In this document: in pieces, positions 49,333-52,027 of the stretch
Layout: each line of letters begins with the position of its first letter
How positions within the stretch are numbered: position 1 is the stretch's first letter
Virus genome (UHGV): UHGV-0030196
DNA: 61,145 nt
Source: a virus
Direction: 5' to 3' (one strand)
Translations under genes and position numbers: made by a program
The notes under the pieces: generated by a model
What the model was told of the DNA's origin: nothing
The model's database searches: none
The model's input: only the letters and a program-made list of their open reading frames with translations

Positions 49333-49533
49333 TCAAGTCACGATCCAATCATTACCGACTATATCAGCCGTCGATAAATCAACTTCCCGGATCTGGAGTC
49401 CATTAATACAAAACCATCCGGTAGTAGAGTAATTATCAGGCCAGGCCCATACACCAACACTCCATGCTTTACGGCGGCACACTTCAGCCTGTCCTTCCCT
49501 GATTTTTTTTACCGCCTGCATGATGTCCATCAC
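49333..49533 (-). CDS. Small protein with DUF2829/Tad2-like pattern
   Basis: CRRKAWSVG...DLSTADIVGNDW shares the pattern of the other two. Confidence 0.3.
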   Translation of the reverse strand: MMDIMQAVKKIREGQAEVCRRKAWSVGVWAWPDNYSTTGWFCINGLQIREVDLSTADIVGNDWIVT

Positions 49534-50237
49534 TCACCTCCCCAACCGATCACCTGGAATTGCCCCATTTTGGGGTGATACCAGCGTTTTCCTCGGTGTT
49601 CAGCCTCCGACATCATCCGGTTAAAAGCATTCATGAAGGGAGATAAGGCCACGATGGAACGACGCGACAATACCCCATCTGGAGTTAAAAACTCATGTGT
49701 ATCGGTGGGAATCCGGTAAGCGTTAACCAGGTTGCGACATTTGGCTTCGGTCAGGCCGCATTTTGCCGCCAGCTGGCGGTAGCCAATGTAACCTTCCGGC
49801 ATGTTGCCCTTCTTGATTTGCTCGACGGTTTCTACCACCTGGCTAACCTTTGACTCAACAACATGAAGCCGCTTTTGCTGCTGAACTGCATTTGCAGCCA
49901 TTGCGGCGATCATCTCTATTTCGGTCAACGGCTGGCGTGCTTGTTCTTCCAGTTCGCGCCAGCGGTCCACCAGCCGGGCAGTAAACTCAGGACAAAGCTG
50001 TGCGACTACAATGATACTGTCTCGTTTGCCTTGCTCGTCGCTAAATCGGAACACCTGAATTAATCGAGAACGCCCCATTACATCTATTTTTGGTTCATCC
50101 TCAATTTGAGGACGAACAATAACGCCGGATTCGGCTAATGTTTCAATGGTACGCTTCACATTGTCATGACGTTTTCCCACCAGCTCCGCGATCTCAATGC
50201 TGGTCATTGATGGCTTTTCAAGAATGCAGATATCCAT
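49530..50237 (-). CDS. Rha-family phage regulatory protein (antirepressor-like)
   Basis: N-terminal SIEIAELVGKRHDNVKRTIETL typical of Rha; start at 50237 or 50207. Confidence 0.55.
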   Translation of the reverse strand: MDICILEKPSMTSIEIAELVGKRHDNVKRTIETLAESGVIVRPQIEDEPKIDVMGRSRLIQVFRFSDEQGKRDSIIVVAQLCPEFTARLVDRWRELEEQARQPLTEIEMIAAMAANAVQQQKRLHVVESKVSQVVETVEQIKKGNMPEGYIGYRQLAAKCGLTEAKCRNLVNAYRIPTDTHEFLTPDGVLSRRSIVALSPFMNAFNRMMSEAEHRGKRWYHPKMGQFQVIGWGGE

Positions 50238-50461
50238 CAGTGTGCCTCCGCAATTCCGGGATTGGTAATATTGCGATACCAAGGATTAGTGTTTGGTTGT
50301 GATGAAGTAGAGAAACGGCCAGTCAGGACGCCATGTTGATCAGGGATCAGAGAACGGGCTTCTTTTTCAGTTGCGGCAATTGCGAAGTGATCGCAGTGTT
50401 TTTGCAGGGAGTGGAAACGCCAGATGAATTCTGGACGTGAGCAAGGATTGGCATTAACCAT
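50237..50461 (-). CDS. Hypothetical protein (74 aa)
   Basis: ORF. Confidence 0.35.
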   Translation of the reverse strand: MVNANPCSRPEFIWRFHSLQKHCDHFAIAATEKEARSLIPDQHGVLTGRFSTSSQPNTNPWYRNITNPGIAEAH

Positions 50462-50792
50462 AGTTACGGCCTCACTAACAGGTTTAACAACCTGCTACCC
50501 GCTGTCAAACAGGTGGCAGGACGTGACAGGGTTGACAGACTGGCGTTAGTGAAACCAGCAGGCCGAAGCCTCCCCATCACGCCCCACCATAATTCGGGCG
50601 TAACGTGGTTTACGGACACAAAAATACCGCAATATCGGAAATCTGCGGTTGTCCGCACTAACATTCAGGCTGTCAAACCTGGTCGCAGAATTTGCTACGA
50701 CGGCATGAATATAAGCCTGAAAACATGGAAGATCAACTAAAAATTTCAGCAATGGATGACTTCAGTCGATGATGCAGATCATACATTCCGAT

Positions 50793-50821
50793 TTAGAAAC
50801 GGCAAATTAATTTTCTAACAC
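50793..50821. promoter_or_regulatory. Operator-like inverted motif pair (TTAGAAA ... AATTAATTTTCTAACAC)
   Basis: Family member. Confidence 0.5.
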
Positions 50822-50874
50822 AAAATGTCGAGCGAGCATTTTCCGATCATTGGGATGTTTTGTAGACGCACAGG

Positions 50875-51837
50875 TCATCCCCTAAAGCCAGCCGGGATTG
50901 ACCAATCCTCACGGTCAAATTCAGACCGATAGCCACGCTGTTTCATCAGGTCAAAGGCTTCACCAATGGTTGCACACCCCTGGGAGCCAGAATAATCCAT
51001 TGAGAAATCCAGGGCACTGGATTGTTTAGGCTTATTCACTGCGGTAGCGGCACTACGTATCCATGCAAATTTTTTTGCCAGCTTTTCAGCGGTACGATAC
51101 AGAGCCTGCCGTTTTGTGTGCCCCTCGTCTGAACGACGCTTTGCAGCTCTCGCTTTTGCCGCCGCCAGGCAGTGGTTGGTATGTTCTTCCCTGATTACTG
51201 TTTTTTTATCCAGTATCCCGTTATCCGTTTGAGAACTATCTGCTGGTGAAGCCTTTGGCTGAACCGCGCATGATCTTTCTCTTCTTTTGGCTATAGAGTG
51301 ACTCTTATTTTCTATTGGCTGTTCATTTTGAACATGGGGGGACTTGTTCAATTTGAACAGGGGGTTCCCAGTTTCAAAAAAATAACGAACCTTTGAAATC
51401 AACTGCTTAACCAGTTTTGTGGCGTTGGCAAATTTGATGCCCTGCTTACCCCCTATCTCCATTGCTACATGAATGAAGTGGAGAAATTGTGTCGTAAACC
51501 GATATACGTTACACACCTGGGCATTGTTATTCGCTACCTGATGTTGCTTAACAAGCATTCCGCACTTCGTCGCTTCAGCAAATGCCCGGCGTACAGTAGA
51601 AATACTGCGTCCTGTAATCTCGGACATATCAGCATATGAGCGACGGATCATGTATTCATCGGTAGACCCTGCCAGGTTGGCGAACTCGGCAATAATGGCG
51701 CTATGTGAAGGGGAAAGAAGACCGCTATGACGAGCAAAAAAACTCAACTGATGACCTTTGATTTTTTTGTGGTATTCAGTGTTGTTTTTATACTCAGAAG
51801 TGTTGAAAGTTACTGAAACTGAATTTAAAATATTCAT
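50875..51837 (-). CDS. HTH protein, RepL-like replication or regulatory protein
   Basis: MSEITGRSISTVRRAFAEATKCGMLV HTH; operator motif upstream. Confidence 0.35.
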   Translation of the reverse strand: MNILNSVSVTFNTSEYKNNTEYHKKIKGHQLSFFARHSGLLSPSHSAIIAEFANLAGSTDEYMIRRSYADMSEITGRSISTVRRAFAEATKCGMLVKQHQVANNNAQVCNVYRFTTQFLHFIHVAMEIGGKQGIKFANATKLVKQLISKVRYFFETGNPLFKLNKSPHVQNEQPIENKSHSIAKRRERSCAVQPKASPADSSQTDNGILDKKTVIREEHTNHCLAAAKARAAKRRSDEGHTKRQALYRTAEKLAKKFAWIRSAATAVNKPKQSSALDFSMDYSGSQGCATIGEAFDLMKQRGYRSEFDREDWSIPAGFRG

Positions 51838-52010
51838 CAGATAGTTCCGTGCAAAAATCTATCTACCGTATAAATCTATGCCAGTGGATTTATACACCAA
51901 AAAGCCGCTTCTCAGCGGCTTTTGCTTTTTTTGGCAGTCGCTACCGGAGCAGTGACCGCGATCCTACTCGATCACATCGGACAGGATCAACAGTGTATAT
52001 TAATACACTA

Positions 52011-52027
52011 TGTTAGAAATTTAATTT
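52011..52027. promoter_or_regulatory. Operator-like motif TGTTAGAAATTTAATTT
   Basis: Identical to 28791..28807. Confidence 0.5.

Follow-up and report, generated by a model that had tools for sequence, protein, structure and literature searches.

Gene content, relatives and operators of the region

We analyzed positions 49,333 to 52,027 of the viral genome UHGV-0030196, where a gene for a RepL-like replication initiator is followed, on the same strand, by an operon that resembles the immI region of phage P1. (We refer to the whole stretch of 61,145 nucleotides as the window, and all coordinates are positions in it.) A first-pass annotation, made without database searches, had described the region as one operator-flanked module comprising a RepL-like helix-turn-helix protein of 320 amino acids (aa), a small open reading frame (ORF), and a Rha antirepressor. 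It had likened this module to the C1-controlled kilA-repL lytic replicon of P1, with a Rha-type protein in it. The genes are:

49333-49530, minus strand: 65-aa ORF, whose start overlaps the stop of the antirepressor gene (TGATG)
49530-50237, minus strand: Rha/Roi-type antirepressor, 235 aa (Pfam Phage_pRha, PF09669)
50237-50461, minus strand: icd, cell-division inhibitor and translational coupler for ant, 74 aa
50875-51837, minus strand: repL, lytic replication initiator, 320 aa (P1 RepL homology)

The Rha gene is thus present as described, and in place of one small ORF there are two (icd and the 65-aa ORF). The region does lie between the head genes and darB: it is bordered by the P1-like head-processing and portal genes prt and pro (52038-54732) and, at its other end, by a CHAP/TIGR02594 gene (48815-49300), which is convergent with the immI operon and is followed by darB (41824-48663). 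Comparing the 320-aa protein to initiator families was a check that the first-pass annotation had proposed. The protein is similar to P1 RepL over essentially its full length (29% identity over 293 aa, E = 4e-30, BLASTP) and it matches phrog_2418 at 3e-130, so it is a genuine member of the P1 RepL family.

D6 is a plasmid prophage of the P1 family. The 3.4 kb around these genes is 95.9% identical, at the nucleotide level, to Escherichia phage D6 (MF356679 / NC_050154), and the same series of genes appears in the D6 record (orf17-orf20). Their product names are lytic replication protein (similar to P1 repL), Icd-like, anti-repressor Ant (similar to HK97 Roi), and hypothetical protein. In PLSDB, 109 plasmids from E. 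coli, Salmonella, and their relatives cover 80% or more of the block and use these product names as well, and the full-length matches listed are 91% to 97.7% identical. A repL gene was also reported in the D6-like plasmid prophage pYU39_89 (PMC6799933). In other words, the module is the published D6 arrangement, with an annotated repL and immI region, and as such it is already known and ordinary. The database records for D6 and for the plasmids have no RNA, operator, or origin features annotated at the repL/immI block. In one of the plasmids (NZ_CP043277.1), the match to the block is in two pieces, with a TnpB-family gene annotated beneath, which suggests that a mobile element inserted into the module.

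Two operator-like sites flank repL:

50791-50820, no strand: two-armed operator ATTTAGA-N16-TCTAACA, covering the -35 element and spacer of the first immI promoter
52011-52027, minus strand: single-armed operator-like 17-mer AAATTAAATTTCTAACA, upstream of repL, an exact match to the motif

The motif is an asymmetric 17-nucleotide (nt) consensus, AAATTAAWTTTCTAACA. With up to 3 mismatches allowed, it has 12 matches in the window, versus 0.52 expected, and this count was reached in 0 of 100 shuffles. All 12 matches lie between ORFs. Several of them are halves of 30-bp two-armed sites: the pattern TGTTAGA-N16-TCTAACA has 8 matches in the window, versus 1.9 expected, and several of these are good palindromes. 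The operator motif that had been placed at 52011 is the exact match listed above, while the coordinate given for the other one (50793) is inside the left arm of the two-armed site, the weaker of its arms, with 2 mismatches to TGTTAGA. The sites at 52011-52027 (minus strand) and 50804-50820 (plus strand) are reverse-complement copies of one 17-mer and are 94% complementary. The operator at repL is kept in D6-like variants even though its upstream flank varies (D6 has one substitution relative to the window), and the operator at immI is kept in all D6-like variants. For comparisons to P1, we took promoter, operator, antisense, and C4-site features from its GenBank annotation. The immI operator has the same position as Op51 of P1 and an unrelated sequence.

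Even with 3 mismatches allowed, the consensus for the C1 operators of P1 (ATTGCTCTAATAAATTT) is not matched anywhere in the window, so the operators here are not of the P1 type and have a different specificity. The window does encode a C1 homologue (345 aa, 30220-31257), which is annotated in D6 as c1/prophage repressor, and one copy of the operator motif lies 12 nt upstream of this gene (window 30192-31257). Dispersed, asymmetric 17-bp operators, some of them two-armed, along with a C1 homologue, match the pattern seen in P1, and we infer that the repressor binds these sites. In particular, 52011-52027 is presumably a site for the D6-type C1. The c1 gene is 84.7% identical to that of D6 at the DNA level, versus about 96% for the repL/immI block, so the immunity region looks mosaic relative to D6.

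Elsewhere in the window, there are two-armed operators with 0-1 mismatch at 2617-2646, 12793-12822, 16990-17019, and 34669-34698. At several single-armed sites elsewhere, a -35-like hexamer lies directly before the 17-mer and a -10-like hexamer lies directly after it; the site at repL does not have this geometry. Operator motifs at 38447 and 38603 are near a cluster of five tRNA genes (Met, Ser, Thr, Tyr, and Arg; 36120-37381, minus strand). This cluster sits in a 3-kb stretch with no ORF of at least 110 aa from an ATG or GTG start.

Overall, our favored reading, to which we give a probability of roughly 85%, is that the region contains two neighboring and independent repressor-controlled modules of a D6-like, P1-family plasmid prophage. 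These would be a lytic replicon (about 50875-52027) and an immI operon (49306-50820) that was inserted between repL and the CHAP gene. The evidence consists of homologies, matches to RNA families, motif statistics, gene overlaps, and conservation across relatives. That the modules are separate is supported by three more distant lineages, in which repL runs right up to, or into, the end of the convergent CHAP gene, with no c4-icd-ant block between the two. These relatives keep the context pro-repL-CHAP-darB. Since the c4-icd-Rha block is missing while repL is in place, the immI operon (about 1.55 kb) is an independent insertion in the D6 branch.

The immI operon and its presumed antirepressor

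Besides icd, the antirepressor gene, the 65-aa ORF, and the two-armed operator, the operon has these features:

49306-49324, no strand: immI-closing terminator (an 8-bp all-GC stem, then T6), which also faces the convergent CHAP/TIGR02594 gene
50472-50508, minus strand: C4 target sites a2 (50502-50508) and b2 (50472-50479), before icd, the same as the annotated P1 sites
50509-50594, minus strand: C4 antisense RNA gene
50662-50714, minus strand: decoy targets a1/b1 for C4 RNA
50708-50736, minus strand: second promoter, TTGATC-17-TATATT, equivalent to P51b (promoter scan)
50778-50805, minus strand: first promoter, TTGCCG-16-TATGAT, equivalent to P51a and overlapped by the operator (promoter scan)

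The C4 RNA matches its Rfam family (RF01695) with 68.8 bits (gathering score 45, E = 1.8e-12), and it is identical to the c4 of P1 across the annotated RNA. The decoy targets match RF03163 with 54.4 bits (gathering score 46.7), and both of the sites, a1 (TTGACAG) and b1 (GTTAGTGC), are confirmed in the window's sequence. The a2 (TTGACAG) and b2 (GTTAGTGA) sites have their complements in the loops of C4, CUGUCAA and CACUAAC. Icd matches NCBIfam NF033153 with 40.4 bits (cut-off 25) and is 62% identical to the Icd of P1. The first-pass annotation had missed both the C4 RNA and the identity of icd. Rfam also has a match at 50620-50701 to isrK, a small RNA of Salmonella, with 43.5 bits, which is below the gathering score of 50; this match overlaps the c4-a1b1 element. 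The c4-type loci in prophages are related to each other, and the overlap with isrK fits with this.

Both promoters have counterparts in P1. The first promoter has the same position relative to c4 as P2c4, and the second promoter aligns base-for-base with the annotated promoter P1c4. More broadly, the alignment to P1 has near-complete identity from the second promoter through c4, a2, b2, and the 5' part of icd. The region of the operator and the first promoter is unrelated to P1, and so is everything beyond about the middle of icd, although homology to P1 can be followed through the 5' two-thirds of that gene.

If the window's operon works like that of P1, then the two-armed operator and the two promoters would control and drive a single transcript that yields the C4 RNA. 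C4 would pair with a2 and b2 and thereby block the translation of icd. The ATG of the Rha-type gene overlaps the stop codon of icd (TGATG), and the 65-aa ORF is linked in the same way to the gene before it, so blocking icd should block the antirepressor and the 65-aa protein as well. When C4 control is overcome, the Rha-type protein would be made, and we presume that it inactivates the D6-type C1.

The Rha-type protein matches Phage_pRha with 37.1 bits (cut-off 29.9; residues 13-100 of the translated stretch). The Rha domain, at the N-terminus, is of the winged-helix type (HTH_24, E = 4e-6), and D6's annotators likened the protein to HK97 Roi. The protein might therefore not be an antagonist of C1 at all, and could be a DNA-binding regulator or a host-interference factor, as was proposed for the Rha/Roi proteins of lambdoid phages, that happens to sit in the ant slot. 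The lack of similarity to Ant1/2 of P1 fits this view, and because the window's C1 is much diverged from that of P1, an interaction with C1 cannot be carried over by homology. Still, we consider this alternative unlikely. The gene has the exact position of ant, is coupled to icd, and is under C4 control; the protein's best PHROG is phrog_63 (“anti-repressor Ant”, 1.4e-46); and a different antirepressor along with a different repressor is the pattern one would expect. No homologues of KilA, Ant1, or Coi of P1 were found in the window by tblastn.

The 65-aa ORF matches phrog_7385 at 1.8e-49. In an exhaustive search of 1.8 billion representative proteins, it had just 7 matches at E up to 0.001. 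One of these is spurious (P0015, a PKD-repeat protein, with a match of only 20 residues). Another one (P0016, 313 aa) is a fusion, with the 65-aa domain at the C-terminus of a closely similar Rha-type antirepressor, which argues that the 65-aa protein and the antirepressor act together. Searching the Protein Data Bank (PDB) with phmmer found nothing, and a word-indexed search for homologues found only near-identical proteins. The structure model is of low confidence, with a predicted local distance difference test score (pLDDT) of 67.6, and no match in the PDB had E below 1. We also considered whether the protein is Tad2-like (DUF2829, PF11195; anti-Thoeris), and rejected this as unproven: the scores were 15.1 bits for the window's protein and 23.9 bits for a relative (P0018), and the cut-off is 25.

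The probable lytic replicon

The features at and within repL, from its upstream end, are:

51992-52009, no strand: perfect 18-bp palindrome AGTGTATATTAATACACT, between the operator and the -35 element
51961-51990, minus strand: candidate repL promoter TTGATC-18-TAGGAT, sigma-70-type, with conserved hexamers and spacing
51900-51933, no strand: hairpin of an intrinsic terminator, flanked by two T-runs, the better of which is on the plus strand, antisense to repL
51869-51894, no strand: inverted repeat TATAAATC-N10-GATTTATA, stem-loop 2 of the predicted antisense RNA
51838-51933, plus strand: predicted countertranscript (about 95 nt) with complementarity to the leader and ribosome-binding region of repL
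51803-51831, plus strand: candidate antisense promoter TTGAAA-17-TAAAAT, within the early codons of repL, with 10/12 consensus positions
51319-51364, no strand: two tandem units of 20-25 bp, each a C-run and then a palindrome TGTTCA-N3/4-TGAACA (direct repeat and inverted repeat)
51270-51318, no strand: A-rich tract ending AAAGATCA, which aligns with AT2 of P1

We compared the region upstream of repL in four diverged lineages (the window and the relatives L027, L028, and L030). In all of them, the stop codon of pro is followed by a TTTCTAA-containing operator, a promoter, a GC-rich hairpin, a leader of 60-300 nt, and repL. The distance from the TCTAA core of the operator to the -35 element is a constant 22 nt. 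The promoter's hexamers and its 18-nt spacing are the same in the window, L027, and L030, while L028 has TTGATT; the sequence of the spacer varies. Similarly, the hexamers are invariant across 17 distinct sequence variants, except for TTGATT in L015. The promoter contains GATC sites, as does the regulatory region of kilA/repL in P1. The 18-bp palindrome AGTGTATATTAATACACT occurs just once in the window and takes up most of the space that separates the operator from the -35 element. It is kept in L027, while L028 and L030 keep only the promoter-proximal half. It may serve as an A/T element of the UP type or as a further binding site. We rejected alternative promoters that overlap the operator (TTAAAT-16-TAATAT, and one with its -10 at TAGTGT) because they are not conserved across the lineages. 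In L030, a metagenomic relative, positions 1-728 encode a group II intron-type reverse transcriptase (RVT_N, RVT_1, GIIM, HNH), next to the portal gene on its upstream side.

The -10 element and the start of repL are separated by 124 nt of non-coding sequence. The hairpin in this leader (51900-51933) is also present in L027, L028, and L030, with compensatory changes in the stem, and in all four lineages our scanner calls it as a terminator in the antisense orientation only. An RNA could run from the candidate antisense promoter in the early codons of repL to this hairpin. Although its spacer has changed, that promoter has the same hexamers (TTGAAA and TAAAAT) in every D6-like variant and in L027, whose RepL is 64% identical. 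The predicted RNA folds into three hairpins with a minimum free energy of -32 kcal/mol (z = -5.5 versus shuffles). The consensus structure is kept in 10 distinct D6-like sequences, with almost all of the substitutions in loops. For example, the stems of stem-loop 2 are invariant in D6-like variants while its loop varies, and L027 has GATAAATC...GATTTATC, with a paired change at the outer position. The loop of hairpin 1 is complementary to the sequence just upstream of repL's start codon. Rfam has no family for the repL leader or for the antisense RNA. In 1995, Heinrich et al. reportedly found that the PaskilA/P53as RNA of P1 inhibits its lytic replicon. By analogy, we predict that a constitutive countertranscript pairs with the repL leader and damps the expression of repL, as P53as would do for kilA-repL.

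Alternatively, the operator and promoter at 51961-52027 might drive just a short, terminated RNA of about 55-60 nt. In that case, repL would have its own promoter past the terminator, and would be unregulated or regulated differently. About 30 nt past the start site that we predict for repL mRNA (near 51954), in the sense direction, there is indeed a GC-rich hairpin followed by T5; the order of promoter and hairpin is kept in the four lineages; and there is a weak candidate for another promoter after the terminator (TTGGTG-16-TAGATT). We think that this is quite unlikely, because the better T-run is always the antisense one, on the only strand where the scanner calls a terminator, because no Rfam family matches the short RNA, and because a plasmid prophage would be put at risk by a lytic initiator that no repressor controls.

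In P1, the lytic origin (oriL) lies inside repL, and a 43-bp A/T-rich sequence (AT2) is required in cis for replication driven by RepL, while the sites for DnaA and IHF are dispensable (PMC9948254). Just before AT2 is an unexplained C/G-rich stretch (PMC9948254). The smallest active target, T5, begins “CCCCTCCCCCTGTCAGGATGACGTGG” and runs into AT2 (PMC9948254, supplementary primer table). When we looked for an internal origin in the window's repL, as the first-pass annotation had recommended, we found a candidate at the position of AT2. The A-rich tract at 51270-51318 is 67% A+T, with 51% A on the coding strand, and has the strongest AT skew within repL. It adjoins the two tandem units, which are CCCCC-TGTTCAAATTGAACA and CCCCCCA-TGTTCAAAATGAACA. 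Seen in this light, T5 of P1 consists of the second palindrome unit and AT2.

Two tandem palindromes are present at the same position within repL in five lineages, and their half-sites differ from lineage to lineage and yet remain symmetric. The half-sites fall into three classes: TGTTCA/TGAACA in D6-like elements and in a 64%-identical type from E. fergusonii; (T)GTCA/TGAC or similar in P1 and 50-odd P1-like contigs; and GATCA-N3-TGATC (the Enterobacter type) in L028 and L030, two lineages at about 34% identity. Both the palindromes and the A-rich tract lie within DNA that encodes a predicted disordered linker of RepL. Symmetry that is kept through sequence change, in linker-coding DNA, resembles the binding sites of a dimeric initiator. 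We propose the palindromes as candidate binding sites for RepL that flank a candidate unwinding element. The DnaA-box motif TTWTNCACA has no matches in repL, and 1 match in the window versus 6.5 expected, which is consistent with the dispensability of the DnaA boxes in P1. Neither the palindromes as RepL sites nor a countertranscript of repL appear in the database annotations or in the 2023 study of oriL (PMC9948254), so these two ideas may be new.

More broadly, the RepL family may have a compact, self-encoded origin whose half-sites co-diverged with the protein into at least three classes, with the D6 branch also throttled by the countertranscript of about 95 nt. We offer this combined proposal tentatively, at a little short of even odds.

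A C-terminal motif, W-x-IP-x-GFRG, is invariant in the alignment of RepL proteins. The cluster representative (97% identity) and all of the more distant relatives carry Pfam PF26868 (Phage_P1_RepL); in our own Pfam scan, PF26868 was not among the matches for the window's RepL, which had only a weak match to HTH_36. Weak PHROG matches were to O-like proteins (4.5e-7) and to “replication initiation protein” (2.4e-5), and a search of NCBIfam found no match. An AlphaFold model, built with 9 sequences, has a winged-helix domain at residues 19-157 (pLDDT about 80-88), a disordered linker at 159-219, a long helix at 217-263, and a short C-terminal helix at 291-300. Foldseek of the model against the PDB found only generic winged helices (MarR-type and TFE-type), with no specific link to a solved initiator, and a sequence search of the PDB with a RepL profile found nothing meaningful and no solved relative. 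A profile scan of genome contigs with the RepL alignment found just two P1-like loci, and tblastn of plasmids found no further lineage among the matches listed. The start codon (51835-51837) is ATG in the window, and GTG in D6 and most D6-like variants (L001, L003, L007, and others).

These generic results (a weak HTH_36 match as the only Pfam hit, nothing in NCBIfam, MarR/TFE-type winged helices, no solved relative) could be taken to mean that the 320-aa protein is a winged-helix regulator of transcription and nothing more, with repeats inside its gene that are accidents of coding rather than an origin. We view this as very improbable. The initiator function of P1 RepL, to which the protein is homologous over its full length, was established experimentally (PMC9948254). 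Furthermore, protein coding alone fails to explain why palindromes and an A-rich tract recur in five lineages with their symmetry kept, and the repeats lie in DNA for a predicted disordered linker.

Returning to the two-module reading, the first module would have, in order, an operator for the D6-type C1, the promoter TTGATC-18-TAGGAT, a leader with a two-way terminator, and repL, with no kilA. Judging from P1, RepL would be made once repression by C1 is lifted. RepL would then bind the two tandem palindromes within its own gene and open the adjoining A-rich tract, which we infer to be the active oriL, and lytic replication would begin.

Several observations weigh against this reading or against parts of it. 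First, the similarity of the window's C1 to that of P1 is weak (22% identity, E = 1e-7, pairwise). Second, a distance of 20 nt separates the operator at 52011-52027 from the -35 element (51985-51990) downstream of it. Unlike Op53 of P1, the operator does not overlap the promoter core, which makes it less obvious how it would repress repL. The repL promoter is also under the threshold of our consensus scanner. Third, the hairpin is terminator-like in the sense direction as well and lies between the promoter and repL (51895-51960), so repL would require read-through or a second promoter. Fourth, no antisense promoter was found in L028 or L030, the lineages farthest from the window. Fifth, the A-rich tract has a lower A+T content than AT2 of P1, which is about 80% A+T. 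Finally, tblastn found no similarity between the Rha-type protein and P1's Ant1 or KilA, which matters here as regards Ant, and the protein's presumed target was taken from the position of its gene in the operon only.

Of the first-pass annotation's comparison to kilA-repL, the RepL homologue, the upstream operator, and the candidate origin stand, while the single unit with Rha in it does not. That the region is a single operator-flanked lytic replicon in which Rha replaces KilA as RepL's partner is scarcely credible: both genes are on the same strand within 1.6 kb, each with an operator motif nearby, kilA and repL are co-transcribed in P1 under a C1 operator, and Rha, KilA, and Ant proteins are loosely lumped together as “antirepressor-like”, but the gene order is the reverse of kilA-repL (repL first and Rha second), Rha has its own two-armed operator, two promoters, C4 RNA, and icd between it and repL, its start overlaps the stop of icd, the c4-icd-Rha block is missing in relatives with repL in the same context, and there is no sequence similarity to KilA.

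Significance and comparison with known systems

The corrected reading, with two modules rather than a swap of Rha for KilA, comes with a precise candidate for a minimal origin (51270-51364). RepL/oriL cassettes are used in P1 phagemids, in PAC vectors, and in biosensors that amplify their signal. A second pair of RepL and oriL with other palindromes might give a replication module that is independent of P1's. The region also illustrates how parts of immunity systems are shuffled within a family of phages: the antisense RNA is identical to that of P1, while the repressor, the operators, and the antirepressor have all been exchanged.

Relative to D6 and the D6-like plasmid prophages, the window has the same genes in the same order, and the differences are small (the start codon of repL, the one substitution in an operator, and the 84.7% identity of c1).

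In CopA/RNAI-type systems, a short, structured, constitutive antisense RNA controls the rep genes of a plasmid. The window's predicted RNA is likewise short and highly structured, and is complementary to the leader and the ribosome-binding site of a rep gene. Unlike those RNAs, it is purely a prediction, and it belongs to a lytic replicon rather than to a maintenance replicon.

In its RepL, C4, icd, and operator logic, the region belongs with both the lytic replicon and the immI operon of P1. The closest parallel for the first module is the lytic replicon of P1 (Op53/P53-kilA-repL). The two have homologous initiators and a C1-type operator upstream, and the window's candidate origin element has the same position in the gene as that of P1. 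P1 has an antisense promoter, PaskilA/P53as, at the 5' end of kilA; the window's candidate counterpart is at the 5' end of repL, and its predicted RNA would likewise end at a two-way terminator. The window differs in that there is no kilA between the promoter and repL. Also, its operator is 20 nt upstream of the -35 element and has an unrelated sequence, whereas Op53 is over the -10 element; its terminator is between the promoter and the gene, whereas P1's terminator is upstream of the promoter; and its palindromes have the half-sites TGTTCA/TGAACA instead of (T)GTCA/TGAC.

The second module parallels the immI operon of P1 (Op51, P51a/b, c4, icd, and ant1/2). The C4 RNA, a1/b1, and a2/b2 are identical to P1's and the second promoter is homologous, and both operons have an operator with two promoters and translational coupling of icd to ant. 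Unlike in P1, the operator and the first promoter are specific to D6, and an unrelated Rha/Roi-type protein and a coupled 65-aa ORF take the place of ant1/2. The operon's location also differs: it lies downstream of repL, whereas the immI operon of P1 lies upstream of kilA-repL.

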